Assembly: GCA_965248055.1 (NCBI GenBank)
Contig: CBDFIJ010000004.1
Span: forward strand, 988,299 to 1,052,298
Direction: 5' to 3'
DNA length: 64,000 nt
From: Candidatus Multivoradales bacterium
GTDB taxonomy: Bacteria; Acidobacteriota; Thermoanaerobaculia; Multivoradales; JAHEKO01
The notes beneath the pieces were generated by a model. That model ran no database searches, was not told the DNA's origin, and saw nothing but the letters and a program-made list of their open reading frames with translations. The translations under genes were made by a program, and so were the position numbers. Positions 31,544-63,567 of the stretch are shown piece by piece (position 1 is the first letter of the stretch; each line of letters starts with the position of its first letter).

Positions 31544-31748
31544 TCTGGCATGCCCCCCTCAGCGGTCAAGGATATCTCTTGTCGGTCGTCATCGGAACCA
31601 GACCTCAGGAATGCAACCGCGATGGGGTCACAGGCAGGTGGATTGAGATAGATACCGGCCCTCCTCCCTAACCCCCGCCGGGATGACATAGAAGAGGCTT
31701 CTCCGCCGGGATGCCCCGAGGGGAGTCCCGACGATGGTCATACCGGTC

Positions 31749-31890
31749 TGAGGCACTTCAACGTGTCGTTCCACACTGAGACACTTCATCGTGTTGTCCC
31801 ATCCTGAGACACTTAATCGTGTCGTCCCACACTGAGGCACTTCAGCGCGTCATCCCACGCCGTGGAACATCAACGCGTCGTCTCCTTCAG
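31749..31890. repeat. 28-bp imperfect tandem repeat x5 (TGAGRCACTTNANCGTGTYGTCCCAYNC)
   Basis: Aligned by eye. Flanked by partial F1-type elements (..CCTAACCCCCGCCGGGATGAC..) at 31663-31691 and 31995-32025. Confidence 0.7.
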
Positions 31891-32077
31891 TACTTCCTCG
31901 TCATCCTCGTAGGGTGGGGGTTTTGGGGATCGAGGATCTCCAACAGCGTCAGCGACCCACAGCCAGTATCTGGACGGCCACCGAATCCCGTCCCCCCTCC
32001 CTAACCCCCGCCGGGATGACGATGGGTGGAATCTCCTCTGCCTCTTGTTCAGAGGCGGTCCTGCTGTTGTCTGGTGA

Positions 32078-32110
32078 CGAAAAAAGTGTCCCCGCTGGAA
32101 CGAAGGGGAG
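32078..32110 (-). terminator. candidate intrinsic terminator downstream of the BMC operon (weak hairpin + T6 on the minus strand)
   Basis: Minus strand reads ..TCCCCTTCGTTCCAGCGGGGACACTTTTTTCG.. Confidence 0.3.
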
Positions 32111-32167
32111 GAAGCTGAAGTTCGGCTGTTGTCTTATCGAGAGAACAAGACCCTAACCGCGGCAACC

Positions 32168-32437
32168 CTAAGTCAGATCAACCGAGTCAACAATCCCCAC
32201 CACCATGGTGCGGATCGGTGCGGTGTCATCAAGCATAATCTGGCGAGAGGAGTTACCCTCGTCCAAGATCAGCACCACTTGATCGACGCCCGCGCCCACC
32301 GCGTCGATCGCCAAGGTGTAGTCGCCCTCGGGTTGCAAATTGGGGCTCAGCCACTGGCAGATCAACAAGCGCATACCATCGCGAACCGGATGATGGATGG
32401 TTGAGACCACGGTCCCGGTGACCCGAGCGATCTTCAT
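32168..32437 (-). CDS. BMC vertex protein (BMC-P; EutN/CcmL/PduN family), paralog 3
   Basis: MKIARVTGTVVSTIHHP.. is the canonical EutN/PduN N-terminus. 89 aa. ATGA overlap with the upstream gene. Confidence 0.8.
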   Translation of the reverse strand: MKIARVTGTVVSTIHHPVRDGMRLLICQWLSPNLQPEGDYTLAIDAVGAGVDQVVLILDEGNSSRQIMLDDTAPIRTMVVGIVDSVDLT

Positions 32438-32703
32438 GCCGTGCGATCCGGATGCTCGATCTGATCGACCAGGCCGACAATCGCGTGATCGACCGGCACG
32501 AACCAGGGGTCCATCGCCACCGCAGCTTCTCTGCTAGCAACGTAGTAAATCTCTTGACCGACGCCGGCTTGGCCGGTGGCGTCGGCGGCGACGATTGCCG
32601 ACCCGTTCGGTGACCCATCCTCGGCCAGCGGGCTGACAAGTAGCAACCGCATTCCGTCCATGCTTGAGACGCGCATCGTTGCCACTACGCTGCCGGTTAC
32701 CAT
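32434..32703 (-). CDS. BMC vertex protein (BMC-P), paralog 2
   Basis: Start set at the ATG giving MVTGSVVATMRVSSMDGMRLLLV.., 11 nt after the upstream stop. 89 aa. Confidence 0.7.
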   Translation of the reverse strand: MVTGSVVATMRVSSMDGMRLLLVSPLAEDGSPNGSAIVAADATGQAGVGQEIYYVASREAAVAMDPWFVPVDHAIVGLVDQIEHPDRTA

Positions 32704-32714
32704 CCCCAAATGCA

Positions 32715-33317
32715 CTAGTCGGGGCTCCCAACCGAGTCGGTATTGATCCGAGAGTGAAACAACGGTGCCTGCTCTAGGTTGCGCCAAACGTCCTCGCCGA
32801 GCTGGGCGATCAGTCGCTGCTCCAACACCACTTCTGGGTGAGCCAGGGACCCGACTCCGGCCTCCATCGCCGCTTGAACCTCATGCAGAACGCCAGAGAA
32901 CAGCAAGTAGCCCTTGCCTCCAAGGCCGTCGGCCATGCGTAGCGTCGCGATCGAGACCTCTGCCCCTTTGACGCCCGCATCGGCAACTTGCAGCAGGCCG
33001 GCGACGGTTTTTGTCTCGACGATCCCCAAAGCTTCACCCGAACGCTGATCGGTCTCCGTCAGAGCTTTCACCACCGCAGGATGAACGTCCGGCAATAATA
33101 CGCAGTCCAAGGGTTGAGCTAGGCCGATGGCGGCACTGCGGGCCTCGTCAACCGGTCCTACCTCGCCAGCCGCCAGGATCAAGAATCGCCCGGGTTGGAC
33201 TGTTCCCAGCCGCAAGTCTCCAAGTGGCGCTCGCTTGGCCATGGCGTCCGCGGCGGTGATGCCAACCGCGATCGATTGGTACTCCATCAGCAGGATGGCT
33301 GGATAATTTTGCGACAT
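32715..33317 (-). CDS. BMC-T shell protein, tandem BMC domains (PduT-like) lacking the Fe-S cysteine
   Basis: Two Pfam00936-like domains (AILLMEYQSIAVGITAADAMAKRA.. and ALGIVETKTVAGLLQVADAGVKGA..) aligning along PduT. The position of the PduT Cys is occupied by Q (GTVQPGRF). Confidence 0.8.
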   Translation of the reverse strand: MSQNYPAILLMEYQSIAVGITAADAMAKRAPLGDLRLGTVQPGRFLILAAGEVGPVDEARSAAIGLAQPLDCVLLPDVHPAVVKALTETDQRSGEALGIVETKTVAGLLQVADAGVKGAEVSIATLRMADGLGGKGYLLFSGVLHEVQAAMEAGVGSLAHPEVVLEQRLIAQLGEDVWRNLEQAPLFHSRINTDSVGSPD

Positions 33318-34810
33318 TAGACGATGCGCAGGCTGCCGACCACCGTCAGCCTACGGATGCGTGAGAAAGTGCGCGGTCGAGACAGGCCTTCCCCAGTTGG
33401 TGTGGCGATCGAGAACGAGGAGAAGCCCTCGCCCATTTGACCCAGGCCGGCGAAGTTGGAGCAGTTGGCGACGAAAATTGAGCAGTTCATGCGCCGCGCC
33501 ATCTCGGTAATCACGTCGACGTTGCGTGAATAGACCGAGGCGGTGTGGCGAAACCCGTGTTCCGCGGTCACCGAGAGCTGAATGCCTTCCTCCACGTCTC
33601 TCACCCTTACCACCGGCAGCACCGGCATCATCTGTTCGGTCCAGACCAAAGAGTGCTCGCGCGGGACTTCTGCCACCACCAGCCGAATCTCATCGCCAGC
33701 ACTAACGCCGATTTCAGCCAAAATCTTGGCCGCGTCTTGACCCACCCATTTGCGATTAATCCTGCCGGGCTTGCCGGCGGGGCCTAGCTCCTCAAAGATC
33801 GCCCGTTCCAGCTTGCGCAACTCGTGGTCGCGCAGCACTTGCGCTCCATTGGCGGCCATCGCCTTGACCAAATCGTCGGCCACCGCGTCGACCACAAAAA
33901 CTTCCTTCTCGTCGGTGCAGACCATGTTGTTGTCAAAAGATGCGCCTTGAACGATCGAGCGCCCAGCGTGGGAAATGTCCGCGCTGTCGTCGACCAGCAC
34001 CGGTGGATTTCCAGGGCCTGCGGTAATCGCTCGCTTGTCCGTCTTGAGTGCTTCCTTAACCACCCCTGGCCCTCCGGTGACCAGCAACAGGCGGATCTTG
34101 GGGTGCGACATCAGGTCTTGTGCTGACTCGATGGTCGGTTCGGCGATACAGGTCGCCAAAGTCTTGGGCCCTCCTGCCTCAGCGATCGCTTCATTGAGCA
34201 TGCCGACGTTCTCGGCGGAAACTCGTTGCGCACCCGGGTGGGCATTGAACACCACCGAGTTGCCGGCGGCCACCATGGCAATGGTGTTGTTGATCACCGT
34301 CGAGGTTGGGTTGGTGGTTGGAGTGATCGATCCAATGACGCCAAAAGGGGCGTACTCGGTGAGCATCTGCCCGTGGTCCCCGGTGACCACCTGCGGTTCC
34401 AAGTCTTCCGGGCCGGGGGTCTTGGTGGTGACTAAGCGATTCTTAAGGATCTTGTCGGCAATGCGGCCCAAGCCGGTTTCAGCGTGGGCTGCGCGTGCCA
34501 GATACTCACCTTGCTCCAGCATCCGCGCCCGCATCGCCTCGACCACCCGAAACCTACGATCCAGGCCCATCGCGGCAAAGCTTTTCTGTGCCTCGAAGGC
34601 AGCGTCTACCGCTTCATCAACGGTGGCGAAAGCGCCGAGAGGATAGGCATCGCGCGATGAACGCCCAGCCTGGTTCTTGGGTTGGCTCTGGGCTTGGCCC
34701 TGGCGGGTAGGAGAAACCGGAGGTGCCACGCGAGGCGCACCAGCGGCGAACCGCTCCCGCACCCGGCTGATCACCGCCTGTACGTCACCGTCAGCGCGCG
34801 CCGCAGCCAC
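33317..34810 (-). CDS. CoA-acylating aldehyde dehydrogenase (PduP/EutE family) with ~110-aa N-terminal extension
   Basis: Catalytic Cys in NNMVCTDEKE. GPGNPPVLVDDSADI. GTG start with GGGAG upstream. N-terminus has amphipathic DVQAVISRVRERF followed by a P/Q-rich linker (possible encapsulation peptide). Confidence 0.85.
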   Translation of the reverse strand: MAAARADGDVQAVISRVRERFAAGAPRVAPPVSPTRQGQAQSQPKNQAGRSSRDAYPLGAFATVDEAVDAAFEAQKSFAAMGLDRRFRVVEAMRARMLEQGEYLARAAHAETGLGRIADKILKNRLVTTKTPGPEDLEPQVVTGDHGQMLTEYAPFGVIGSITPTTNPTSTVINNTIAMVAAGNSVVFNAHPGAQRVSAENVGMLNEAIAEAGGPKTLATCIAEPTIESAQDLMSHPKIRLLLVTGGPGVVKEALKTDKRAITAGPGNPPVLVDDSADISHAGRSIVQGASFDNNMVCTDEKEVFVVDAVADDLVKAMAANGAQVLRDHELRKLERAIFEELGPAGKPGRINRKWVGQDAAKILAEIGVSAGDEIRLVVAEVPREHSLVWTEQMMPVLPVVRVRDVEEGIQLSVTAEHGFRHTASVYSRNVDVITEMARRMNCSIFVANCSNFAGLGQMGEGFSSFSIATPTGEGLSRPRTFSRIRRLTVVGSLRIV

Positions 34811-34898
34811 TAGCTAGCTCCCCGAGCCCAAGCCGCAGACCCACCAAGTCGTGACCTGAATCGCGACCCGGCACCGGGTCTTGGACAGCTTGGCCCCA

Positions 34899-35195
34899 TT
34901 AGCCGTCGCCCTTGCGGTAGACCTCACGCCCCTCGACGTCCCAACTGTCGACAATCGCCATAATCACCGCATCGCAGGGGCGATCTTGGGTGGCCACCGT
35001 CTGCCGCGCCGAGCTGCCAGTGGCATAGAGCACCACTTCGCCCTCGCCCGCACCCACCGCGTCCACCGCGACCACGTAGCCACCGGTAGTTTTGGCTCGG
35101 TCGTCGAGTTGTTCGACCACCATGAACTTGAATCCAGCCACTCCGGGGTCTTTCTGGCTTGCCACCAGATTACCGACCACCTTGCCAAGCAGCAT
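34899..35195 (-). CDS. BMC vertex protein (BMC-P), paralog 1
   Basis: MLLGKVVGNLVASQKDPGVAGFKFMVVEQ.. 98 aa. Confidence 0.8.
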   Translation of the reverse strand: MLLGKVVGNLVASQKDPGVAGFKFMVVEQLDDRAKTTGGYVVAVDAVGAGEGEVVLYATGSSARQTVATQDRPCDAVIMAIVDSWDVEGREVYRKGDG

Positions 35196-35198
35196 CGA

Positions 35199-35489
35199 CT
35201 AGCTCTTTTTGGGCGCGCGACCCAATGGCAACGCCGCGTCGACGTTGTTGTGCGGACGAGCGATCACATGAGTGGAGACCACTTCACCGACTTTTTCGGC
35301 TCCGCGTACCCCTGCCTCAACCGCTGCTTTCACCGCGGCAACGTCGCCCCGCACCACGGCAGTGACGTAGCCACCGCCGGTCTTTTCATAACCCACCAAG
35401 TCAACCTTGGCCGCCTTCACCATCGCGTCGGCGGCTTCGACCATGGCGGAAAAACCCCGCGTCTCGATCATTCCCAGTGCTTCAGCCAT
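35199..35489 (-). CDS. BMC-H hexameric shell protein (PduA/EutM-like)
   Basis: [29 protein letters not shown].. Start at ATG 35489 with AAGGAG 6 nt upstream. Confidence 0.85.
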
Positions 35490-35597
35490 ACTCTTCTCCT
35501 TCGCCCTCAGGCGATTGTCCATTTCTTGTTAATAGCTCTCTTTACAAACTGCATTGACTGCTTTGCTTCCACTTGGCCCTTCTAACTAGCCCTGCGT

Positions 35598-36224
35598 CTA
35601 GTCGACCTTGCGTCCGTCGATCCCATCCAGGGCCGCAACTGCTGCCCGCCAACCGACGTCAATATCTCTCTCTTCACCGCCCAGGTAGACCCGGCCGAAA
35701 GAACCGATCGAGCGAACCTCCAAGACGTTGATCCCGGATGCTTTCTCGGCCTCGTTGGCGGCCAGAGCAGCGTACGGAGCGGGTTCCACCTCCAGCACAT
35801 ATAGCGTCTGCCCTGGAATAATCATCTGCCCATGCCGCATGCGATTCACCAATTGCGCTTGGTGGTCGTCAATCGCCCGCACGATTTGGCTAGAAAGCAC
35901 TTTGGGTTTGATTCGGTCACTCTCCTTCAAGCCAATGTCAGCCAAGATCGCCTCGCCCGCAGCGCGAGTCTCGGCTTGGTCCTCCGAATGGACTTCAAGT
36001 AACCCGTAGTAACGCTCGACGACCTGCATCCCCGGGCGAACCCGGGTTGACTTCAGCGCCACATCGGTCAGCCGATTAATTTCGATTCCCGGTGAAATTT
36101 CTACATATAACGAACAATCCCCGGCCAAAGGTAAGAACCCTTGTGCCACGGTGCCCATAAAAGCAGCGTATTGCGGCTGCAAGCTGTCCAAAAATACGTA
36201 CGATCGAAGATCAATATCCGCCAC
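35598..36224 (-). CDS. BMC-T shell protein with circularly permuted BMC domains (PduB/EutL-like)
   Basis: TDVALKS..V.. and [29 protein letters not shown] match the permuted-domain hallmarks of PduB/EutL. Start placed at GTG 36224 (AAAGGA 8 nt upstream). The longest ORF reaches 36374 but would overlap deoC by 160 bp. Confidence 0.6.
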
Positions 36225-37104
36225 TTGCCCCATCCTTTCGAGAAACAATGTCCTTTCCGGAGACAATCGAAATTCCTGCTGACGCGCCGATGCGGGTCGC
36301 GCCAACATTGATGAACTCGCGGACCTGTTCCGCGGTACTAATTCCACCCGACGCCTTGACCTCAAGGTCACCACCCACCGCTTCGTGCATCAACGCCACG
36401 TCATACAACTCTGCACCACCGTTGCCGAAACCGGTCGAAGTCTTGACGAAGTTGGCTTTCGCCGATTTGGCCAACCGCGACGCGACGACCTTTTCCTCAT
36501 CGGTTAACAATCCGGTCTCCAAAATCACCTTGCAGGTGGCGCCAACTTCGCGACAGGCGTCGGCAACCTTAGCGATGTCCTGCTCGACCGCTTGGTAATC
36601 ACCACTTTTCAGAGCGCCAATGTTGATCACCATGTCGATCTCACGTGCACCATCGCGCAACGCCTTGCGGGTTTCCATCGCTTTGATCTCGGTGCTGTGG
36701 GCACCCGAGGGAAACCCAACCACCGACGCCACCCGCACCGGAGAATTGCGCGTGCGCGAAGCCGCTCGGGCAACCCAAAACGGGTTGACACAGACCGCGG
36801 CAAAGCCGTAATGCTTAGCCTCATCACACAGTTGGTCGATATCGGCGGCTGTTGCACTGGGCTTCAACAGGGTGTGGTCGATGTATTGCGCCAAATCAGA
36901 CGGTACCCGACCTCCCTCTCCGTTATAGGACACACGGCGCGCACCGGTGTGGACGATCGCTCGCACCTTGTCCGAACAACAGGCGGCACAACTGCCCTCG
37001 CAGTCACTGCATTCACCTTCACTGCATTCACCCCCACTGTCTGCGCCCAGCGCGGCTAGAACTTTTTCGGTGATCTGGTTGATCAATTGCTCTCGGTCAC
37101 TCAC
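36211..37104 (-). CDS. deoC: deoxyribose-phosphate aldolase with ~75-aa N-terminal extension (amphipathic helix + Cys-rich linker)
   Basis: DeoC core YIDHTLLKP ... KVILETGLL ... KTSTGF (Schiff-base Lys region). N-terminal [15 protein letters not shown] + [25 protein letters not shown] start 3 nt after the rpiB stop. Confidence 0.85.
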
Positions 37105-37107
37105 GGT

Positions 37108-37611
37108 TTACCTCGCGCCATAGGTGCGCTCAAGTTCGTCAATCTTAGCGACTCGCAGTGCGTGGCGCCCAGGACCGTGCGGTGTCGCCAGCCAAGTGTC
37201 GACAATCTGCAAAGCCAGGCCCCTGCCGATCAGCCCGGCACCAAGGGTCAAGACGTTGGCGTGGTTGTGTTCGCGGCTGTTGCGCGCCGAAGAAATGTCA
37301 TAACAGAGGGCCGCGCGCACACCGGGCACCTTGTTGGCGGCCATCGCTGATCCAATACCCGCACCGTCAACCACTATTCCAGCGGTTGCGGACCCGTTCG
37401 CCACTTTCTGCGCTACTGCGTGCGCCATATCTGGATAATCCACCGCTTCCGGCCCGTTGGTACCGCAATCGATCACCCGGTGTCCGGTGTCGGCTAGGTG
37501 CGCCGCAATGGTGTCTTTCAATTCGAATCCGCCATGGTCTGCCCCGACCGCGACCACCAAGTCACCCCCACCATTGACCTGCTGCGTTGTGGACACACCA
37601 GCAGCGGCCAC
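37108..37611 (-). CDS. rpiB: ribose-5-phosphate isomerase B (RpiB/LacAB family); true start possibly internal near 37554
   Basis: VGADHGGFELK, catalytic Cys in VIDCG, HN..ANVLTLGAGLIG. Confidence 0.85.
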   Translation of the reverse strand: MAAAGVSTTQQVNGGGDLVVAVGADHGGFELKDTIAAHLADTGHRVIDCGTNGPEAVDYPDMAHAVAQKVANGSATAGIVVDGAGIGSAMAANKVPGVRAALCYDISSARNSREHNHANVLTLGAGLIGRGLALQIVDTWLATPHGPGRHALRVAKIDELERTYGAR

Positions 37612-37732
37612 GGAGGCGATCGGCCCGGTCTCTGAGGCGACTTCCGAGGCGATGCTCTCGGCTACTGCCTGAGCTACTAACTCTCGAATTCGATCTGGAT
37701 CAGGTTTCAGCGTTGACTCCGTTCATTACAAG

Positions 37733-37797
37733 ACTTATTTACCACAGGACCTATTTGCCACAGGACCTATTTGCCACAGGACCTATTTACCACACCC
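37733..37797. promoter_or_regulatory. 16-bp tandem direct repeat x~4 (CTATTTRCCACAGGAC) in the region upstream of the BMC operon
   Basis: Seen directly at 37733-37797, ~125-190 bp upstream of the rpiB start on the minus strand. Each unit contains TGTGGYAAATAG on the coding strand. Confidence 0.5.
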
Positions 37798-37844
37798 TTA
37801 ACAATAATGTTTATCTAATATCCGCTGCGACTCCCGCAAAACCG

Positions 37845-39914
37845 TCATGAGAGGTCTGGAGCCGCGGTTCGAATCGCCCCCAATTGGTCAATCTGCTCCA
37901 GTTTCAACCCGCTGTAGTAGTGATCCAAAATCTCGGTAAAACCGGACCCGCGAAGCGCCATCCGGTAGGCACCCCGCTGACACATCCCCACCCCGTGCCC
38001 CCAACCGCGACCACTGAAAACCCAACCCGGCGCCTGTTGGCTGCCACTACTACGACGCACCCGAAACCAAGTCTCCGGGATATCCAAGAACCAGCGGATC
38101 GACAACCCTTTGAGCTCGCGGGTCTCTCCGCCGGTGCCATGCAACTTAAAGGTCTTCAAACGGCCGGAAACCCCCCGCTCGCCGAGCTCGAAAGAACGAT
38201 AACCAAAACCCGGAAATTCGGCGCTGGCTCGACGCGCCAAATCGCTGTCACTGCGGTGCTCACTCCATACCTTGGTCCCCGGTGCCCGGCTGGCATTACG
38301 ACTACTACGGGCTGGGATCAACGCCGCCACCGGATCACCCTCCACCAGCACCACGCGCACCGGATCCCCGGCCGCCAAGAGGCCATCGCCAGGGGCCTGC
38401 CAGTGCCACACCGTATCCCCAGGAAGGAGTAGATCTCCCTGCGCCGAACCCTGGGTTTGCACCTTGAAAGCAGCTTGGCTGCGAGCGACGAATTTGGTCG
38501 ACTGCTCGACCACCAGTGCCACCTCTTGAGCGACTTGATAGAGGATTCGGCGCAGATCGGCCAACAGTACGTGCTTACTCCCCTTGGGCAAACGCCGCAG
38601 AGAACCCGCCAATGGCTGATGATCATCAGCCACGGTTGCCGAAAACCAAGCCGGATCGGCGACCAGGTCGAGTACCGAGCCAAGAAAGCGGCGCACCTCG
38701 GAACCGATAAAACTCTCTAGGCGATCTTCACCCGGGGTTAGACCCGCCTTCTTCATCAATCGGCGAAAGGATTCGCCCACCTCCCGTGGGCTCGATCCCA
38801 GATCGCCGATCAGCCTACGCATGACTCGGCTCTCGATCACCGTCCAATCGCCCCGCCGACCGATTGAAACTAGGCCCCCTTCAATGCAGGGCACCCCACG
38901 AAGATAAGAATGGTGCTTGGCCGGAAAGACGGTTGCGACATCCTCGGTGTGACCACCGCAGGTCGCGGTATACAGAGTGTCTGCGGGGCGCCGGTCGGCG
39001 GTCACCAGTACCAGTCCGGCGGTTTCGCTCACCGCCTGATTCGACAACGGCTGTTCCGCCCCTAAACCTCCAAACACCTGGCAACGCGGCGTCGCACAAA
39101 CATCAAAGCCCTCAGCGGCAAACTCGCCCAAGTTGTGCAGTACATAGGATCGGGCGGCTACCGCCAACGCCTTGAGAGCATCCAGGTCGTTGTAGATTTT
39201 CGGCCCCATTTCCCGGGGCACCACGCCCCGCAGGTAATTCTCCAACTCGGTCACCAACACCACATTGATCGAGCCCCGGCGATTCAAGGTCAGTTGCAAA
39301 CCGCCACGATAAGTGCCCCCGGCCCAAGCCATAGGCCCACCGTCGGACCGCCGGACCACAACGGTGGTACCCGCCTTTTGCGCTCGGGAACCGGTAATTT
39401 GTAGACCCGCGTTGGCGATCTCACCGATCTCTTCGACCACCCAAGCGTCACGACCGCGGGCGCTCAGACGAGCCTGAGCGGCGACCGCGTCCTGACGTTG
39501 GTGCCAAATCCCCAACCGAACCCGCGTTAGTCCGGTCTCAGCATCGAAAGCGAGATCCGACGATAGACCGGTGAAACGCTCCAAGTCCTCAGCAAGTCGT
39601 TGCGCTTGCGCGGGCTCACGCAGCGCCGCAATTTGCAATCGGTAGCTCCAAGCCCGGACTACATCTCCTGTTGGCCGTACCACCAAATGCGATCCTTGAT
39701 CGACAACCTGACCTCCGGCGATCACTTCCATGGCGTGGCGACCGGCCAACACCACCTCCCGCACATCGGTCGCCAACCCCACCCGGAGTTGAAATTCTTG
39801 AGGCTCGCCTTCGAGCGCCGGCCAAAGCGGGCGCGAGACAACTAGGCCCAGGTAAGCCACAGCACAAACAACCGCGAAGCGAATCACGGGGCGGCGTTGG
39901 AAAAAGATTCTCAA
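37845..39914 (-). CDS. SpoIID/LytB-domain protein (cell-wall amidase enhancer family)
   Basis: Central SpoIID-like block (..NYLRGVVPREM.., ..AVAARSY.., GFDVCATPRCQVFGG). N-terminal TM helix. Confidence 0.7.
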   Translation of the reverse strand: MRIFFQRRPVIRFAVVCAVAYLGLVVSRPLWPALEGEPQEFQLRVGLATDVREVVLAGRHAMEVIAGGQVVDQGSHLVVRPTGDVVRAWSYRLQIAALREPAQAQRLAEDLERFTGLSSDLAFDAETGLTRVRLGIWHQRQDAVAAQARLSARGRDAWVVEEIGEIANAGLQITGSRAQKAGTTVVVRRSDGGPMAWAGGTYRGGLQLTLNRRGSINVVLVTELENYLRGVVPREMGPKIYNDLDALKALAVAARSYVLHNLGEFAAEGFDVCATPRCQVFGGLGAEQPLSNQAVSETAGLVLVTADRRPADTLYTATCGGHTEDVATVFPAKHHSYLRGVPCIEGGLVSIGRRGDWTVIESRVMRRLIGDLGSSPREVGESFRRLMKKAGLTPGEDRLESFIGSEVRRFLGSVLDLVADPAWFSATVADDHQPLAGSLRRLPKGSKHVLLADLRRILYQVAQEVALVVEQSTKFVARSQAAFKVQTQGSAQGDLLLPGDTVWHWQAPGDGLLAAGDPVRVVLVEGDPVAALIPARSSRNASRAPGTKVWSEHRSDSDLARRASAEFPGFGYRSFELGERGVSGRLKTFKLHGTGGETRELKGLSIRWFLDIPETWFRVRRSSGSQQAPGWVFSGRGWGHGVGMCQRGAYRMALRGSGFTEILDHYYSGLKLEQIDQLGAIRTAAPDLS

Positions 39915-40969
39915 GGCTTATTTTCGACTGCAGGACTGTTTGAGGTAACGGTTACTGTGCCTTGATTCACTGCGTCTCGATCTACTGTGTCTCTATTGAC
40001 TGTGTCTTGATTTCCTGCATCTTGATTCACTGGGTCTTGATTCACTGGGTCTTGATCTCGTGCCAGAGCGATTGCCGCGCCCCATACCAACAGCACCACC
40101 GCACCCATAGCGAGCGCCTGGATCACTCCCGAAACAATTTGACCCACTACTACCGCCACCAGATTGGAGCCGGCGAACATCTGCACCGACCAGCTCAAGA
40201 GCAGCACCGGCACCGACGCCGCAAGCATGACGAGAAAGGCAATGCCGATCATCATCAACCACGCACCGCCACGGCGGATAAAACTGCGCGACCCACGGCG
40301 AATCGCCTGGCCTAGCGGCAAGAACGGGAGGTGCATCTCGACCACCCACCACCACAGCCAGAGCAGTAACAGCAAGGTCGACACGATCAAGACGGCCAAG
40401 CAGCCCGCAACTAGCGCCGTCCCGCGCATGCCTCCCATCAGCATTCCCATCAAGAAAAACGGCACCATCGAAACCAGCACCAAAGTGACAGCGACCGGCA
40501 CCCGCCAAATCAACAGCCGCCACACAAGCTGTCCACCCCAGCCGAAGAACTCACCCCAGTTGAAGGTTTCAAACCAGTCTGCAGTCAAAGCTTGGGTCGC
40601 CGTCGCCTGCGAGGGCGCCTGACGATCGCCCGCGGCCAGTGTGCCCAAGACACCGCCGTCGAGGAAGGTCTGAATCAAGACTTGGATCAAGCCACCGAGC
40701 AACAACACCGCCACCGCCCAGGGGAGTTCGGCAGGCAAGTGCTGCAAAGACATCCACCGCGGCAACGCATCGACCAACCCCTCGGAATTCCCCGACATCA
40801 TGTCCAGATACAAGTCCCCCAGCCCCAGGAGTTTCAGCGCCGGGATCAGGGTCGCCGCAATCACCGCCATCGATAACAGACTCTTGAGTAACACCGTCCA
40901 GAGGAGCCGGTGATTGCCGCGCAAGTTCAGTGCGCCTCGCTCAAAGCAGGAAATCGTGCCGCGTCGCAT
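39911..40969 (-). CDS. integral membrane protein with D/N/Q-rich repetitive C-terminal tail
   Basis: Multiple TM helices. C-terminal DQDPVNQDPVNQDAGNQDTVNRDTVDRDAVNQ encoded by a 15-bp tandem repeat at 39955-40060. 4-bp overlaps with both neighbours. Confidence 0.5.
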   Translation of the reverse strand: MRRGTISCFERGALNLRGNHRLLWTVLLKSLLSMAVIAATLIPALKLLGLGDLYLDMMSGNSEGLVDALPRWMSLQHLPAELPWAVAVLLLGGLIQVLIQTFLDGGVLGTLAAGDRQAPSQATATQALTADWFETFNWGEFFGWGGQLVWRLLIWRVPVAVTLVLVSMVPFFLMGMLMGGMRGTALVAGCLAVLIVSTLLLLLWLWWWVVEMHLPFLPLGQAIRRGSRSFIRRGGAWLMMIGIAFLVMLAASVPVLLLSWSVQMFAGSNLVAVVVGQIVSGVIQALAMGAVVLLVWGAAIALARDQDPVNQDPVNQDAGNQDTVNRDTVDRDAVNQGTVTVTSNSPAVENKP

Positions 40970-40972
40970 GCT

Positions 40973-41824
40973 CTATTTCAGGCTGTTCGCCGCTTTCTGT
41001 CCAGAAACCTCGCGCCGATAATCTTCCGACCAAACCTGAATCGGGCGCACCATCTCAAACATGCGGCTCAATAGCCGCTGCGGAATGCGAGCAGCCAAGT
41101 TGCTCTTGTTGAAATCTTGGTCCTGCGCTGATGGTTCGCGATCCAAGGATTCTTCGAACCCGGTCTGAGTATCCATCTGCTCCGGCTTGGGCATCGGATA
41201 GTTGGAAGTAAAGATGGTTGGCAGCCGTGCGTTGTAGCGCGTGTTGATCAGTAGGTCGAGTTGTTCCAAGGCCCAAGGACGAGGTGTCTGAGCACCAAGC
41301 TCGTCCAAGACCAGCAACTCTGCACGCAACGCCGGGTCCAAAATCTTGCCTCGATTGGGTCCACCATTGTTGCCAAAGGTTGCCTGAATACTGTGGATCA
41401 AAGAGGCGAAGTCGACGAAGTGAGCGCGCACCTGGTAGCGCTTAACCAACTCGTGAAGGATGGCCACCGCCAAATGGGTCTTGCCGGTGCCCGGAGGCCC
41501 CCAAAATAACAGGCCGGTATCGGTAAAGGTGCCATCCCTACGAATGAAACGTTCGACATAGCGCTCGGCCAAGGTTTTGGCCTCCAGCAAGCTCTTGTGG
41601 TGACCTGGCTTGTGATGATTGGGATCAAAATTCTCCAAGGTGCAGTTGCGGTGCCGAACCGGCACTCCCGACGCAGCCAGAGCGCCCGCCAAAAGCGACT
41701 TCTCCCGGCACTCACAAGGCTCCGCGGCCCCCGCTTCGCCGTCGTCTACCACCACCCAACCCAGACCGCCACACTTGAGGCAGTTCTCGGTCTCTACTGT
41801 TGAATCAACGCCTCCCTTTTGCAC
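40973..41824 (-). CDS. IstB/DnaC-like AAA+ ATPase with N-terminal Cys cluster
   Basis: Walker A WGPPGTGKTHLAVAI. Walker B LLVLDELG. N-terminal CLKCGGLG...CEC zinc-ribbon-like. Confidence 0.6.
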   Translation of the reverse strand: MQKGGVDSTVETENCLKCGGLGWVVVDDGEAGAAEPCECREKSLLAGALAASGVPVRHRNCTLENFDPNHHKPGHHKSLLEAKTLAERYVERFIRRDGTFTDTGLLFWGPPGTGKTHLAVAILHELVKRYQVRAHFVDFASLIHSIQATFGNNGGPNRGKILDPALRAELLVLDELGAQTPRPWALEQLDLLINTRYNARLPTIFTSNYPMPKPEQMDTQTGFEESLDREPSAQDQDFNKSNLAARIPQRLLSRMFEMVRPIQVWSEDYRREVSGQKAANSLK

Positions 41825-41894
41825 GGTTGGATGCTAACAGAGGAAAGATCCCATTCGCGCACTAGAATTCCCCGATGAGCAGACTTCAAAACCG

Positions 41895-42635
41895 GTGGTT
41901 GTGATTTCTCTTTTGGCGGTGACCTCCGGGTTGATCGGCCATCCACGACTCAAGCCCGATGAAGTCGACCTAACCCATAGCGCCACGCTCTTGGCCCGAT
42001 CTATCGCTTACCACGACCCCGGCGGGCGCTGGGGCCAAACCCCGCTGGCACTCGGGTTTGAAGAGACCCGCCCCGATGGCTCGGCGCGCCACACCAGCGT
42101 GGTCCTTGACCCAGTCCATCAGCGCTTTGAGTGGAGTTCACAGCGCGGTGAAGATCTGTTGCAAGGGTCGCTGAACGAGGGCGAATGCACGGTCACTCTC
42201 AACGGCTCGGCTACGTTTTCTGCAGCCCAGCGTGACACCTACAGCCTCGACTGCGATCGCGTCACCCTCTATCGCGACTACTACAGCTACCTGTGGGGAC
42301 TGCCGATGAAACTGCGCGACCCCGGTACTCGCCTGGATCCTGAGGTTCGAGACACCGAGTTCAACCGGCAACAGGTTAAGAGCATCCGCGTCACCTACGA
42401 CCAGGAAGTCGGTAGTGACACCTGGTATTTCTACTTTGACCCGGAATCCGCCCGGTTAGTCGGATACCGCTTCTTCCACGATCAAGCGGCCAACGATGGT
42501 GAGTACATCTTTCTGCAGGGTGAACTCAAAGCCGAAGGACTACGCCTGCCGATGTCGAGAACTTGGTATACCAATGCCGAAGATCAGTTGCTGGGAACCG
42601 ATACTTTGGTTGAGTTGGTTGCGGAAGCTGAGTGA
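41895..42635 (+). CDS. hypothetical protein
   Basis: 246-aa ORF with a GTG start and a hydrophobic N-terminus. No recognisable motif. Confidence 0.4.
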   Translation: MVVISLLAVTSGLIGHPRLKPDEVDLTHSATLLARSIAYHDPGGRWGQTPLALGFEETRPDGSARHTSVVLDPVHQRFEWSSQRGEDLLQGSLNEGECTVTLNGSATFSAAQRDTYSLDCDRVTLYRDYYSYLWGLPMKLRDPGTRLDPEVRDTEFNRQQVKSIRVTYDQEVGSDTWYFYFDPESARLVGYRFFHDQAANDGEYIFLQGELKAEGLRLPMSRTWYTNAEDQLLGTDTLVELVAEAE

Positions 42636-42673
42636 ATAGATTGTTCCTCCGCGTCGAGACCTGACAGCGCGCG

Positions 42674-42697
42674 GGAGCCCGCAAGGGGCTCCTACAT
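42674..42697 (+). terminator. GC-rich stem-loop (GGGAGCCCGCAAGGGGCTCC) 40 bp past the stop of the preceding gene
   Basis: 7-bp stem and 6-nt loop seen in the sequence. No U-tract. Confidence 0.3.
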
Positions 42698-42734
42698 TGA
42701 CCTCGCACATCCTGAATTGCCGGAACGCAAGGAG

Positions 42735-43880
42735 CTGGAGATTCAGCCAACATCGAGATCCTTCGACTCGGGCTACGCCCTCGCTCAGGATGACAACGGA
42801 AGAGGTAGCTCCCCACGCCGCTATCCAGCATGCAACGAAATGCCTTCATCGGAGCGAGCTGTCCACGATCCCAATGAACTAACCCGGCCTGCTCTTCGTC
42901 GGGGAGGGGCAAGTTCAAACGGCCCTACACGCCGGGGTTATCCTGAGTGGCCGAAGCGTGCAGCTCTACCCCGTAGTCACCCTGAACGGACTATCCAAGG
43001 CCCCAAATGAACTAACCCGGCTGTTCTTCGTCGGAGAGGGGATTGCCCCCTCCCGCACCCTTTCACTGTGGTGGTCCAGAGCGACCGAAGCGTACAGCTC
43101 TACCCCGTAGTCACCCTGAACGGGCTATCCAAAGTCCCAAAATGAACTAACCCGGCGCTGTTCTTCGTCGGAGAGGGGATTGCCCCACCCGCACCATTCC
43201 ACCGCAGTGGTCCAGAGCGACCGAAGCGTATTGCTCTACCCCGTCGTCATTCTGAGCGAACCAGTCATCCGCTCAGCACCCATTCCACCCGTGGTCATCC
43301 TGAGCGACCCCGAGTCCGCGAGGGAGAGTCGAAGGATCTCAACTTCACAGCGCACACTCTTTCTGCAGAGGGCAGCATTGTCGCGACCCGAACTGAGGAA
43401 GGCAAAAAACGGGAACCCCCAAGGGGATCCCCTACATCGTCTTCCAACGTCAGGTGAATCGCCGAAACGGAGAACCATTCGCCAGCATCGAGATTCTTCG
43501 ACTCGGGCTACGCCCCTCGCTCAGGATGACAACGGAAGAGGTAGCTCGCCACCCCGGTACCCAGCATGCAACGAGTTGCCTTCATCGAAGCGAGCTGTCC
43601 ACGATCCAAATGAACTAACCCGGGCTGTTTCTTCATAAGAGAGGGCTTGTCCCCTCTCACACCCCTCCACCGCGGTCGTCCCGATCGACCGAAGCGTACA
43701 GCTCTACTCCGTTGTCATCCTGAGCGACCCCGAGTCCGCGAGGGTGAAGTCGAAGGATCTCAACTGCACCGCGTACACTTCTTCTGGAGAAGGCAGCATT
43801 GTCGCGCCACTAACTCAAGAGGACAGAACGGGAACCTACGAGGGCGCCCCTACATTTCTTTTTCTTGGTGGCTTCGTAGG
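42735..43880. repeat. complex repeat region: two ~370-bp duplicated modules carrying F2 elements (GAGATCCTTCGACTC..CGCTCAGGATGAC in both orientations), plus three tandem ~128-bp subunits each carrying a GAGGGG-N5-CCCCTC hairpin
   Basis: 42750-42890 matches 43487-43625, and 43290-43440 matches 43712-43855, at ~90% identity. Subunits at 42875/43003/43131. Reading frames through it (DDNGRGSSPRRYPACNE..) are repeat-derived. Confidence 0.7.
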
Positions 43881-43892
43881 TGCGAGAACCGA

Positions 43893-44267
43893 CTAACGCC
43901 GCACCAAAGGACCCGCGTCAATCTCCACCAACGCATGACGCCGATCGACGCCTGCCCTACGATCGCCCATCTCCTGACGGACAAACTCGGACATCCGTTC
44001 GACCTCGGCTTCTAGCTGGTCGATTCGCGCTTGGAGTTTGAGGATGACGTCGACGCCGGCTAGGTTGACGCCCATGTCACGGGTGAGGGTAAGGACGGTT
44101 TCTAAGCGCTTGAGAGTGTCGTCGTCGTAGAGGCGGGTGTTGCCGTCGCTGCGCGGTGGGTCGATCAAGCCTTCGCGCTCGTAGAGCCGCAAGGTTTGAG
44201 GGTGGATGTCGAAGCGTTCAGCGACGACGCTGATCATCACCGTTGTTTGTCGCTTTCTTTTCACCAT
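43893..44267 (-). CDS. hspR: MerR-family heat-shock repressor
   Basis: MISVVAERFDIHPQTLRLYEREGL aligns with the HspR HTH. Located 240 bp downstream of dnaK. Confidence 0.7.
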   Translation of the reverse strand: MVKRKRQTTVMISVVAERFDIHPQTLRLYEREGLIDPPRSDGNTRLYDDDTLKRLETVLTLTRDMGVNLAGVDVILKLQARIDQLEAEVERMSEFVRQEMGDRRAGVDRRHALVEIDAGPLVRR

Positions 44268-44505
44268 GATGACGGCCTCGCTTTGTCCGGTTGTCCGATC
44301 GGTCTAGATGCCAGTCTAGCTTGCAGCTCCTGGGTCACCTGTTGCTCATGCCTGAAGCAAGAGAATCAAGAGGAGCGATTGTTAGCCAACCGCCCCTCGA
44401 ATGATTCACTCCTGTTCGGGAAGCCTGCTCAGGAAGCCTAGTCAGCCAGCCCAATCGGCCAGTGCCAGTCGGCCAGCCTCACCGACCAGCGACCCGGTAA
44501 TCGAG

Positions 44506-46482
44506 TTAGCTGGCCTTCTGCTGGTCTTCAGCAGCCTCGTCCTCAGCAGCCCCGTCCTCAACAGACCCGTCGTCAGCAGTTGAGTCCTCAACGACCTCGT
44601 CCGCCTCGTCTACAAACTCAGCATCGATGACTTCGTCCTCGTCGCTGGCCGCGTCGCCACCGGCATCCGGTGCCGCACTCTCTTCAGCAGCCTGCTGATA
44701 CATCGCCTCGGCGAGTTTGTGCGACGCCTGCGACAAGTTGGCCATGGCTTCTTCCATGGTGGTGGCGTCATCGCTCTCTAGTGCGGTCTTGGCGGTCGCC
44801 AAAGCCTCATCCAAGGTTGCCTTGTCGGCGTCCGCGAGTTTGTCGCGGTGTTCACCCAAACTCTGCTCGGTCGAGTAGACCAAGCTGTCCAGCTGGTTGC
44901 GAACCTCGACGGTCTTACGACGCTCTTTGTCGGTATCGGCGTTGTCTTCCGCCTCACTGACCATGCGCGAAATCTCGTCGTCACTCAAACCACTGGAAGC
45001 GGTAATGGTGATGTTCTGCTCCTTGCCGGTGCCCTTGTCTTTGGCCGAGACGTTGACGATGCCATTGGCATCGATGTCGAACGCGACCTCAACCTGCGGG
45101 ATGCCACGTGGCGCCGGCGGAATGCCTACCAGGTGGAAACGACCGAGAGTCCGGTTGTCCTTGGCCATCTCGCGCTCACCCTGGAGCACGTGAACCTCGA
45201 CCGAAGTCTGGTTGTCCGCGGCAGTCGAGAACACCTCGCTCTTGTTAGTCGGAATGGTGGTGTTGCGCTCGATCAAGCGAGTGAACACACCGCCCAAGGT
45301 CTCGATACCCAGCGATAGCGGCGTAACGTCCAGCAGCAGAACGTCTTTGACGTCCCCGGCCAGCACACCACCCTGTACCGCGGCACCGATCGCCACCACT
45401 TCATCCGGGTTGACGCCCTTGTGTGGCTCCTTGCCGAAAAACTCCGCGACCTTCTTCTGGATCAACGGCATCCGGGTCTGGCCACCGACCAAGACCACTT
45501 CGTCGATGTCACTGGCTTTGACGCCAGCGTCTTTGAGCGCCTGAGCACAAGGCTTCAACGACCGCTCGACCAGGTCACCAACCATCTTCTCCAGCTGGCT
45601 GCGTTGGATCTTGACGTTGACGTGCTTGGGGCCGGAGGCATCGGCAGTGATAAACGGCAGATTGACCTCGGACTCGGAAGCAGTGGAAAGCTCAATCTTG
45701 GCCTTCTCCGCCGATTCCTTGAGCCGCTGCATCGCCATCGGATCGCCGGAGAGATCCAAGCCTTGGTCCTTCTTGAACTCAGTCAGCAACCACTCGATGA
45801 TCACTTGGTCGACGTTGTCGCCACCCAAGTGGGTATCACCGTTGGTCGCCTTGACCTCGACCACCCCGTCGCCCACTTCCAGAATCGAAATATCAAAGGT
45901 ACCGCCACCGAAGTCATAGACCGCGATCAGCTCGTCACCCTTCTTGTCCAAACCGTAGGCTAGTGCTGCCGCAGTCGGCTCGTTGACCAAACGCTCGACT
46001 TCCAGACCGGCAATCTTGCCCGCGTCCTTGGTCGCCTGGCGCTGCGCGTCATTGAAGTATGCCGGCACCGTGATCACTGCCTTGGTGACCTTCTCTCCCA
46101 GATAATCCTCGGCAGCCTGCTTCAGCTTGCGCAGAATCATCGCCGAAATCTCTGGTGGCGAATACTCCTTGCCACCAGCGACCACCCGCAACGCGCCGTC
46201 GTTGTCGTTGACCTTGTAGGGAACCATCTTCATCTCTTCCGAGACTTCGTCCCGGTTGCGGCCCATAAACCGCTTGATCGAAAACACCGTGTTCTCGGGG
46301 TTGGTCACCGATTGGCGCTTCGCCACCTGCCCCACCAGCCGCTCACCGCCCTCAGTGAATGCGACCACCGAAGGGGTGGTGCGGTTGCCTTCCGAATTGG
46401 CGATCACGGTCGGGTCTGAACCCTCCATCACCGCAACCACGCTGTTGGTTGTTCCTAAGTCAATACCAATAATTTTGCTCAA
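44506..46482 (-). CDS. dnaK: molecular chaperone DnaK (Hsp70)
   Basis: [32 protein letters not shown]. Full-length 658 aa. Confidence 0.95.
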
Positions 46483-46577: not shown

Positions 46578-46617
46578 GGTGAATTGACAATATTCGCATG
46601 AGCGCGTCTTTGTCAAA
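46578..46617 (-). promoter_or_regulatory. candidate dnaK promoter (TTGACA-16-AATATT on the minus strand) embedded in an inverted repeat GAATTGACAA-N19-TTGTCAAATTC
   Basis: Palindrome and hexamers read directly from the sequence ~100-135 bp upstream of the dnaK start. Confidence 0.4.
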
Positions 46618-46655
46618 TTCGTCCTACACTTTATATGACAAGAATAAGCGCAGAT

Positions 46656-52469: not shown

Positions 52470-53095
52470 GCCGGTCGATACAGATTCCCGCCCCTCGCTC
52501 CCCACCCGCTGGAATGACGGGCTGCTACTACCTTTTACCCCACCCGCGTCAGAATGGGAGGGGGCAACCCCCTCGATCCAACTCAGCGCCGAAGAACTGG
52601 CCTTGATCGAAGCCGCGACCTTCTCCATCGCCTAGCTATCAACGTATTCAAAACGACACACCCCCAACTCGTCATCCCGGCGGGGAAAGGATTGGGGGGC
52701 CGGGATCTACACATCTCAGCTGCGGAATCTGCACGCCCACCTTGGCAAAGATTCCCGCCCCACGCTCCCCTCCCGCGGGAATGACCGCCTGCTTTGCAGG
52801 GGCGGGTTTTACCCGCCCGCGTCAGAACGGGCGGGGACAAACCTCCCCCCTACTTCTCCATCGCCTAGCTATCTCCGCGCGCCCTTATGACCTACCCAAA
52901 CTCGTCATCCCGGCGGGGGAAGGATTGGGGGGCCGGGATCTACGCATCCCAGCTGCGGAATCTGCACGCCCACCTTGGCAAAGATTCCCCCCCACGCTCC
53001 CCGCCCGCGGGAATGACGGGCTGCTTTGTAGGGTCGGGCTTTACGCCCGCCCGCGTCGGAAGGGAGGGGATAAACCCCTCCCCTACACCTAGCTG
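52470..53095. repeat. tandem array D: ~240-bp module x~2.6, each carrying a divergent F1 palindromic element, a GGGAGGGG-N4-CCCCTCCC hairpin and a copy of the last ~60 bp of the AKR gene
   Basis: 52650-52890 vs 52890-53095 ~90% identical. Tail ..SAEELALIEAATFSIA* at 52577-52635 duplicates the AKR C-terminus (51585-51644). Confidence 0.7.
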
Positions 53096-58095: not shown

Positions 58096-58114
58096 GTAAA
58101 CGGGAAGGGATAAC

Positions 58115-63450: not shown

Positions 63451-63567
63451 GAGACTCTGTTTCCACGAGACTATGTTCTCGATGGCAGTGTTCTCGCTGG
63501 CAGTATTCTCGTTAGCAGTGATCTCGTGGCGGCGCTCTTGACGGCGCTCCCGTTGACTAGCCGCTAC

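Follow-up and report, generated by a model that had tools for sequence, protein, structure and literature searches.

A 16-bp tandem array upstream of rpiB in an Acidobacteriota microcompartment operon, probably a lineage-specific amplification of a conserved promoter-like core

The 64,000-nt stretch analysed here (the window; positions 988,299 to 1,052,298 of contig CBDFIJ010000004.1, assembly GCA_965248055.1, Candidatus Multivoradales bacterium) carries a tandem array of four 16-bp units upstream of rpiB, the first gene of a bacterial microcompartment (BMC) operon. The units are built around an 11-nt core which is found as a single copy upstream of the same gene in ten related lineages. The best overall explanation, to which we give a probability of about 0.6, is that the array is a lineage-specific amplification of a conserved core-promoter module. 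The core would be the promoter of the microcompartment operon, of the extended -10 type, and would give rise to a near-leaderless transcript. If this reading is correct, it provides the first concrete candidate promoter with a predicted start for the sugar-phosphate-utilisation (SPU) microcompartment operons of Acidobacteriota/Thermoanaerobaculia.

Conservation of a single-copy core upstream of rpiB

The DNA surrounding RpiB homologues was compared in L001 and L002 (Mb-scale contigs), in the loci L003, L004 and L099-L105, and in 80 loci from representative genomes. Exactly one 11-nt core was present in each of ten related lineages (L001, L002, L003, L004, L099, L100, L101/L102, L103-L105, L008 and L028), always on the rpiB strand and 9-64 nt before the rpiB start. 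With the window, for which unit 4 of the array stands in the alignment, 11 lineages could be aligned and their consensus is T-R-T-G-G-T-A-M-R-H-A. T1, T3, G4, G5, T6, A7 and A11 are invariant (11/11), A8 and A9 are each kept in 10 of the 11 cores, and position 10 is Y or A. A C located four nt past the core is also kept in 10/11 lineages (in the window it is found on the minus strand at 37732, 37748, 37764 and 37780), which brings the conserved block to 15 nt, T-R-T-G-G-T-A-A-A-Y-A-n-n-n-C. The 20 nt upstream of the core are unconserved across the lineages.

The lineages harbouring the core have RpiB proteins of 57-76% identity and mostly the gene order spoIID-rpiB-deoC-BMC. The ten relatives apparently all belong to Acidobacteriota/Thermoanaerobaculia; L008 is a Candidatus Multivoradales of the class Thermoanaerobaculia and L028 a member of the same class. 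The scan of the genome collection with RpiB returned mostly loci of Acidimicrobiia and Chloroflexota and, among the matches listed, the core was absent from these loci and present only in L008 and L028.

A position weight matrix (PWM) of the core (TRTGGTAAAYANNNC) was built from the orthologous sites and used to scan ~132 kb of DNA (the window, L001, L002, L103, L008, L028 and L101). The orthologous sites scored at least 18.7 bits and units 2 and 3 of the array 15.3 bits; the best other position reached 11.8 bits, and no further core site of 12 bits or more was detected in these ~132 kb.

In L003, the closest relative found (76% RpiB identity), the single copy is bordered by the same flanks as the array on both sides, namely aaGGG, then TGTGGTAAATAGGTCT, then TGAAATGcccaGGAGaacacaCTG; the window is therefore the L003 layout plus a 48-bp insertion corresponding to three extra units. 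In L103, the entire spoIID-rpiB intergenic region measures 22 nt and is essentially just the core. A tandem version was sought in the JGI metagenomes with a degenerate 21-nt pattern spanning the unit-unit and unit-flank junctions; none was found, the pattern having matched only the L003 contig and 13 other sites, all of them single, chance-level matches in unrelated low-GC contigs. By these comparisons the iteration is specific to this genome, the iterated element itself being conserved.

These results bear directly on the first-pass annotation of this DNA, which had offered an iterated transcription-factor binding site as one of two readings of the four copies. The array resembles direct-repeat operators and iterons (OmpR/PhoB boxes, plasmid iterons) by its four head-to-tail 16-bp units beside an AT-rich stretch. 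Unlike them, it has a period that is no multiple of the helical turn (~10.5 or 21 bp), its iteration is not conserved in the orthologous promoters, two of its copies are mutated at an invariant base, and no cognate regulator or rep gene accompanies it. The absence of an obvious regulator gene from the locus, already remarked upon in that annotation, was borne out by Pfam for the window and for the syntenic neighbourhoods of L001, L002 and L103. No second site, and thus no regulon, appeared in the ~132 kb examined. The reading as an iterated transcription-factor site is not supported by these comparisons.

The tandem array and the start of rpiB

Tandem Repeats Finder (TRF) delimited the array at 37728-37794, with a period of 16, 4.2 copies, 92% matches and a score of 106. 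Four full 16-bp units TGTGGYAAATARGTCY, 88-100% identical to each other, are read on the coding (minus) strand from 37794 to 37731. The fourfold repeat announced by the first-pass annotation is thus found both by TRF and in the sequence itself, but in the register used there, CTATTTRCCACAGGAC, only three copies match within 3 mismatches. The TGn plus TAAAT-like pattern that it ascribed to each copy was found in all of them as a TRTGn-TAAATA block, with a C at -12 in units 2 and 3. The TGTAATGAAC directly following unit 4 is the ancestral flank and not a fifth copy. On its other side, the array begins 50 nt downstream of the stop codon of a spoIID-like gene, and the hexamer TAAACA (37813-37808) in this spacer lies 18 nt before the hexamer of unit 1, a 4/6 match to TTGACA at a spacer of 18. 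No terminator was predicted after spoIID on the coding strand by the consensus promoter/terminator scan.

The frame of rpiB is open upstream of the listed GTG start at 37611 and reads ...L-KPDPDRIRELVAQAVAESIASEV.... The extended N-terminus MKPDPDRIRELVAQAV aligns with the homologue N-termini MSPDPSKIRDLVAQAV, MPVEPDRIRRLVSQAV and MPDRDEIQRLVRQAV, the homologues cover 96-100% of the extended query, and their initiator codon falls opposite the CTG at 37710-37708. The same arrangement of a Shine-Dalgarno sequence followed by a non-AUG start is present in L003 (GGAG-N6-CTG) and in L001 (GGAG-N6-TTG). On the basis of these alignments, the start of rpiB is placed at the CTG 37710, and the 33 extra codons (37612-37710, minus strand) encode an N-terminal encapsulation peptide. 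The array is therefore located 21-84 nt upstream of rpiB, and not 125-190 bp as formerly stated, a distance that was wrong because the gene start had been taken from the first canonical start codon. For the same reason of gene structure, the description of 37612-37844 as an AT-richer intergenic segment had to be narrowed: the array segment is indeed AT-richer (GC content of 0.45-0.47 versus 0.60-0.68 in the flanks), but 37612-37710 is rpiB coding sequence.

Because rpiB begins with CTG, the encapsulation peptide is absent from the public 167-aa RpiB (P0001), and likewise from the public protein of L003. Gene callers have been noted to miss N-terminal extensions of SPU enzymes in other loci (PMC11585597), and catalogues that deduce encapsulated enzymes from such extensions would misclassify this one.

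A search for the 16-mer of the first-pass annotation elsewhere in the 64-kb window, with up to 3 mismatches allowed, gave no copy outside the array (0.45 chance matches expected). It was almost certainly not as a copy of a dispersed repeat (of the repetitive extragenic palindrome or miniature inverted-repeat transposable element kind), nor as replication iterons beside an AT-rich segment, that the array came to lie here. Such origins could be imagined in a window full of dispersed repeat families of 195-233 bp, with an AT-rich stretch abutting the array and a DnaC/IstB-like ATPase gene 3 kb upstream. Against them, the unit is found nowhere else in the window, nor in ~68 kb of related loci except at the orthologous site; the array has no sequence in common with the GTCATCCC...GGGATGAC family; and the orthologous loci are single-copy. 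Replication iterons were ruled out by these single-copy orthologues, by the chromosomal context (a dnaK neighbourhood) and by the GC skew, which does not switch at the array.

Similarity of the core to extended -10 promoters

The core presents the layout T-R-T-G at -17 to -14, one base, and then a hexamer beginning with TA. TRTGG directly precedes the hexamer in 11/11 lineages and in all four window units, and none of the 11 orthologous cores departs from T at -12 or A at -11, this fixed T being replaced by C in units 2 and 3 of the window. In unit 4 the putative -10 hexamer TAAATA is located at 37741-37736. This arrangement is that of extended -10 promoters (E. coli galP1, the Firmicute "-16 region", M. 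tuberculosis T-17 G-16 T-15 G-14), in which TRTG stands one base before a TA hexamer, and the core shares with them the lack of a conserved -35 and a position directly upstream of the first gene of the operon, on the coding strand. Motifs of this type have been described as TRTG and TGTG extensions (bioRxiv 10.1101/2025.01.23.634641; PMC6212719). No conserved -35 element was detected across the lineages at a spacing of 16-19 nt, as expected because the layout is that of an extended -10. The 16-bp module should therefore be regarded as a candidate core promoter of the BMC operon, with rpiB as the first gene, that would need no -35.

Transcription has been reported to begin ~7 bp past the -10 element, preferably at a Y-R-Y triplet (bioRxiv 10.1101/2025.01.23.634641). 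A Y-R-Y triplet is present at the 7th nt past the hexamer in the window, and the start predicted by this rule for unit 4 is given in Table 1; the equivalent predicted starts for units 1-3 are 37777, 37761 and 37745. Transcription would thus begin ~7 nt downstream of the hexamer and 1-5 nt before an ATG. For unit 4, it would leave a 3-nt leader before the ATG of a short upstream open reading frame (uORF). Stacked -10 elements controlling the BMC operon had been the second suggestion of the earlier annotation. This second suggestion is partly supported, the single-copy block being conserved at the same place in 10 lineages, mostly 8-12 nt before a start codon without Shine-Dalgarno sequence.

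Several points weigh against the promoter function proposed here. In 11/11 lineages the last base of the hexamer, at -7, is A instead of T (TAAATA, TAAACA, TACAAA, TAAGAA), which breaks the TANNNT rule, and it is for want of this T that the core is not classified as a canonical sigma-70 -10 element. A consensus scan of 37000-38400 reports no sigma-70 promoter. The G at -13, the A at -7 and the downstream C are conserved beyond the needs of a generic -10, and the core differs by these fixed bases from the extended -10 promoters mentioned above; such a strict conservation of non-consensus bases could point to recognition by an alternative sigma factor or by a DNA-binding protein. Counted from the first T of the hexamer, the ATG comes after 14-18 nt and not after the ~12 nt typical of strictly leaderless genes (PMC3160421). 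Since no terminator follows spoIID, read-through transcription could serve the operon without the core. As for the additional units, 16 bp apart they cannot hold RNA polymerase simultaneously and, two of them being mutated and tandem repeats being common in these genomes, the extra copies may be inert. The putative dnaK promoter of the window looks canonical, so that the lineage is not obviously using another housekeeping consensus.

The consensus sequences of other recognition motifs were compared with the core by eye. Sigma-54 (GG-N10-GC), sigma-32, sigma-28, PhoB/OmpR boxes, CRP/FNR, GntR/HutC "GTnTAnAC" and the marbox were considered and none fits across the lineages. A literature search for the 9-mer returned only primers and unrelated sequences.

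Start codon spacing and upstream open reading frames

In 9/11 lineages, an ATG begins 8-12 nt past the core. With a background ATG frequency of 0.0126 per position in these upstream regions, the binomial P of this spacing is ~8e-10, and ~6e-6 if only six clades are taken as independent. In L103 (9 nt past the core) and in L028 (12 nt), the ATG is the start of rpiB itself, without Shine-Dalgarno sequence. In the window, L003, L002, L004, L099, L100 and L101, it opens a uORF of 6-12 codons; these uORFs begin 8-11 nt past the core, and their stop falls between -3 and +8 nt relative to the rpiB start (CTGA in L003, TGATG in L002 and L004, TGAATG in L099 and L100; also in the window and L101). L001 has instead a two-codon ATGGCTTGA overlapping its TTG start. 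At unit 4 of the window the distance from core to ATG is 9 nt, as in L003 and L103, and the uORF overlaps the start region of rpiB in another frame. The uORF peptides are only loosely related (MPRR..., MR[IF]AVI...) and contain no obvious sensor codons.

The gap of 8-12 nt leaves no room for a Shine-Dalgarno sequence. TA-like -10 signals located ~12 nt before start codons without Shine-Dalgarno sequence mark leaderless genes (PMC3160421), and the hexamer-ATG spacing observed here in 9/11 lineages is 2-6 nt longer than this published mode. In mycobacteria, leaderless and short-leader mRNAs headed by short ORFs have been described (Shell et al. 2015, PMC4633059), and leaderless short ORFs heading operons are also known there (Canestrari et al., bioRxiv 10.1101/834739). 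The present arrangement is similar in that an ATG without Shine-Dalgarno sequence is preceded, at a distance of a few nt, by a -10-like element and in that the first ORF, in most core lineages, is a 6-12-codon uORF heading a polycistronic operon, its stop overlapping or abutting the next start. It differs from the strictly leaderless mycobacterial mRNAs in the spacing, which suggests a leader of 1-5 nt, and in the uORF peptide, which is not conserved; moreover, the core lineages are apparently Acidobacteriota.

These data are compatible with a near-leaderless mRNA that would begin with rpiB in some relatives and with a 6-12-codon uORF in most of them, as in this genome. With the uORF stop on or next to the rpiB start, the translation of rpiB would probably be coupled to that of the uORF. 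Such a coupling would make CTG and TTG starts workable, as needed here and in two relatives, and the conserved leaderless-uORF arrangement could in this way explain the non-AUG starts on the first cargo gene.

CA-rich tandem repeats of 7-8 bp (CCACCACA, CCATCCA, ACCACTAC) were also observed directly before start codons without Shine-Dalgarno sequence, at merR and at a glyoxalase gene in L002. In L004 and L099-L101 such repeats directly adjoin the rpiB core, and three Logan contigs end inside them; 5' regions throughout the clade may share this feature. A putative partner half-site of the core, ACCAC...GTGGT, was rejected, being present in one sub-clade only and accounted for by CA-rich tandem repeats, which the genomes concerned have in unrelated intergenic regions as well.

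The fixed distance to the AUG could also reflect a role in translation. The element would in that case act on the RNA of a spoIID-rpiB co-transcript, as the site of an RNA-binding protein, as a processing site or as a translation enhancer independent of a Shine-Dalgarno sequence. Since no terminator follows spoIID and the pair is syntenic in many relatives, the array is probably transcribed from upstream too. We nevertheless hold this explanation for very improbable: the invariant TRTGG is not complementary to the anti-Shine-Dalgarno sequence, a separate GGAG serves rpiB in this genome, L003 and L001, and the invariant bases follow the pattern of a TGn-TA DNA element. A structured RNA in the spacer was rejected as well, the fold z-score of +0.38 being no better than that of shuffled sequences, and the Rfam scan of 36500-39000 gave only chance-level matches, none below E = 2.

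Otherwise, the core could serve as the -10 element for an alternative sigma factor, or as the operator for a dedicated transcription factor whose gene lies elsewhere, in which case the four copies would form a multi-site array altering repression or activation of the operon. The invariance of the non-consensus bases (G-13, A-7 and the C at +4 past the core) is in agreement with this proposal, as is the presence of the 11-mer at this site only in ~132 kb, indicative of a specific rather than a generic motif. Control of SPU operons by a regulator has a precedent in Chloroflexi, where a GntR-like regulator is encoded beside RPI (PMC11585597), and a palindrome GTAACC-N4-6-GGTTAC is found 28-38 nt upstream of the core in L008 (~2795-2812) and L028 (~2093-2110). 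An operator, however, requires neither a fixed orientation nor a fixed distance of 8-12 nt to an ATG devoid of Shine-Dalgarno sequence, and L103 leaves no room for a separate promoter downstream of it. Ancestrally, the site is single, short and asymmetric, has no conserved partner half-site and lies in a conserved neighbourhood without regulator gene; no relative has an iterated version, and a period of 16 bp places successive sites on opposite faces of the helix. We thus regard the operator or alternative sigma factor as unlikely. The palindrome itself is shared by L008 and L028, the two genomes of Thermoanaerobaculia in which rpiB lacks a uORF, and it could be an operator there.

Origin and possible role of the extra units

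The array has no statistical distinction in itself. Slippage, and not chance base composition, is the right null model and, because slippage makes such arrays without selection, the statement that the array exceeds chance says little about it. Other short arrays were detected by TRF in the window (18 bp x4.1 at 1308, 28 bp x4 at 31748, 15 bp x7 at 39952 and 15 bp x3.9 at 63474), where at least six arrays of period 15-28 have about four or more copies, and the related loci L001 and L002 are as repeat-rich, with 7-8-bp arrays in several intergenic regions. On the sequence evidence, the array is most simply a tandem duplication of a promoter region in a repeat-prone genome and is, as such, fairly ordinary; it belongs to known kinds and nothing here overturns current understanding. 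Replication slippage on TG/GTC microhomology would be its most likely origin. Judging from the present copies, three or more rounds of duplication and two or three substitutions went into it; units 2 and 3 being identical and sharing the same C, one mutation followed by a further duplication would account for both.

The 16-bp unit takes in all 15 nt of the conserved block. Where the ancestral flank reads TG(A/T), the array has the TGT of the following unit, so that each unit recreates a complete -10/discriminator/start module. A random 16-bp duplication would cover the whole block ~3-6% of the time (our estimate, for an ancestral spacer of roughly 46-86 nt), which hints that the duplication was not indifferent to function. 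In the proposed amplification of a promoter module, unit 4 would be the working orthologue with the ancestral geometry and units 1-3 young duplicates. Unit 1 may provide a second start, the transcript from which would be longer by 48 nt and translated by means of the Shine-Dalgarno sequence, and units 2 and 3 would be weakened by the T-to-C change at -12.

It is quite possible, if somewhat short of probable, that the core is functional and the extra copies are inert, the array being a neutral product of slippage in which only the proximal unit matters. Short tandem arrays are common in the window, L001 and L002, units 2 and 3 are changed at an invariant position, and none of the other genomes or metagenome contigs searched has a tandem version, all of which is in agreement with neutrality. 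On the other hand, the duplicated segment is the whole conserved block (~3-6% by chance), the sort of duplication with the highest chance of upsetting a promoter. Strict neutrality does not predict that it would persist through at least three duplications and two or three substitutions, and unit 1 remains intact with its native upstream context, including the 4/6 -35-like hexamer at 18-nt spacing. Between inert duplicates and extra start sites altering the output, the present data cannot decide.

A stronger form of the functional hypothesis, which we consider improbable, would make the array a copy-number-variable stack of complete core-promoter modules acting as an expression rheostat for the BMC operon. 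The proximal start would then yield the near-leaderless, uORF-coupled message and the upstream starts messages 16-48 nt longer, read from GGAG and CTG. Downstream -10-like copies might impose sigma-dependent pausing, and the gain or loss of units would shift both the amount and the translation mode of the first cargo enzyme. Simple-sequence repeats in or near promoters act as contingency loci in Neisseria, Haemophilus and Bordetella, and variable-number tandem repeat (VNTR) loci occur in intergenic regions. The window array is similar to these loci, being short, tandem, apparently made by slippage and located within putative promoter elements (each unit contains the conserved -10-like core), where its copy number could alter promoter geometry or output. 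It differs from them in its unit, a 16-bp segment with the whole -10/discriminator block rather than a 1-8-bp spacer tract, and in its copies, which have diverged. It is not classified as a contingency locus, no copy-number polymorphism having been observed among the sequences compared. Whatever its role, the array is a natural set of minimal promoter modules, some intact and some point-mutated, in which the behaviour of stacked -10 elements could be studied.

Gene context and feature coordinates

By Pfam, the array is surrounded by genes for a SpoIID/SPOR-domain protein, RpiB, DeoC, BMC-H, two EutN-type pentamers, an aldehyde dehydrogenase and a second BMC-domain protein, and the gene order of the operon is identical in L001, L002 and L103. 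The locus is assigned from its gene content to the SPU type, because RpiB, DeoC/DERA and aldehyde dehydrogenase co-occur with BMC-H, BMC-T and BMC-P shell genes; the definition is that of PMC8217296 (Sutter et al. 2021) and PMC11585597. As in the SPU loci of these studies, RpiB and DERA have N-terminal extensions. The locus differs from the characterised Chloroflexi SPU6 locus by the lack of an adjacent GntR-type regulator, and from other SPU loci by the conserved spoIID/SPOR gene and the 11-nt core that precede rpiB in this clade.

In this clade the BMC operon is always preceded by the gene string dnaK, merR/hspR-like gene, gene for a DnaC/IstB-like AAA protein with an N-terminal Cys cluster, membrane protein gene and SpoIID/SPOR gene. 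The region upstream of dnaK (window 46590-46625, minus strand) carries the canonical-looking TTGACA-N18-TATTGT, and a conserved block GGGAATAAATCTGCGC..ATTCTTGTCATATA upstream of dnaK is common to the window and L002 (3320-3355).

Table 1. Coordinates of the array, of the neighbouring genes and of related features (window positions unless a related locus is named).
Feature	Position	Strand	Basis or remark
Tandem array, four 16-bp units TGTGGYAAATARGTCY	37731..37794	-	in each unit the 11-nt core is followed by 5 nt, the 4th of them being the conserved C
Unit 1, TGTGGTAAATAGGTCC	37779..37794	-	core intact; ancestral upstream flank aaGGG and AT-rich upstream context kept; PWM 19.8 bits
Units 2 and 3, identical, TGTGGCAAATAGGTCC	37778-37763 and 37762-37747	-	PWM 15.3 bits each
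Unit 4, TGTGGTAAATAAGTCT, proximal	37731..37746	-	sequence and spacing orthologous to the single copy of L003; PWM 22.0 bits
Predicted transcription start, unit 4	37729	-	G of tGt, 7 nt past the hexamer; from the ~7-bp and Y-R-Y rule
uORF, ATG AAC GGA GTC AAC GCT GAA ACC TGA (MNGVNAET-stop)	37700..37726	-	ATG (37726-37724) 9 nt past the proximal core
Shine-Dalgarno sequence GGAG	37717..37720	-	6 nt upstream of the CTG start
rpiB from the revised start, 200 codons and a stop codon	37108..37710	-	in-frame translation; homologue N-termini; Pfam LacAB_rpiB
Spacer of 50 nt, spoIID-like stop to unit 1	37795..37844	-	AT-rich stretch and weak -35-like TAAACA
SpoIID/SPOR-domain gene, upstream neighbour of rpiB	37845..39914	-	Pfam; synteny in L001, L002 and L103
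Rest of the microcompartment operon, downstream of rpiB	32170..37104	-	deoC, BMC-T-like, BMC-H, EutN, aldehyde dehydrogenase, BMC, two EutN; Pfam
Upstream gene string, dnaK to SpoIID	window 40973-46482; L002 3439-9865; L103 1-4978	- (window)	
uORFs of the relatives	L002 9969-10001; L003 277-297; L004 53-88; L099 39-71; L100 51-83; L101 2300-2338		
CA-rich repeats	L002 5474-5510, 17192-17218; L101 2256-2279; L004 1-30; L099 1-20; L100 1-31		
Repeat family of 195-233 bp	31600-32120, 42951-43249, 52662-53086, 56268-57041, 58113-59168, 62020-62513		

Other repeats of the window

The 195-233-bp repeat family, with the common motifs GTCATCCCCGAAGG and CCGCCGGGATGACGA, forms long tandem arrays and shorter copies which fill several intergenic regions, including one after the last BMC gene. 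A related CCGCCGGGATGA segment is present upstream of the core in L101 (~2160-2250). Between the end of the BMC operon and an acyl-CoA dehydrogenase gene lies a 28-bp tandem repeat x4 (CTGAGACACTTCATCGTGTCGTCCCACA; 31737-31882), each unit of which contains a GACAC...GTGTC inverted repeat.

Several of the short repeats are situated in coding sequences. The 18 bp x4.1 array (1308-1380) is 100% identical between copies and lies inside a 509-aa ORF (696-2225, minus strand). The 15 bp x7 array (39952-40056) encodes DPVNQ-like repeats at the C-terminus of a 352-aa membrane protein upstream of spoIID. A 15 bp x2.3 repeat (37004-37039) is found in the Cys-rich N-terminal extension of DeoC, and 15/30-bp repeats (44524-44602) encode part of the acidic C-terminal tail of DnaK.

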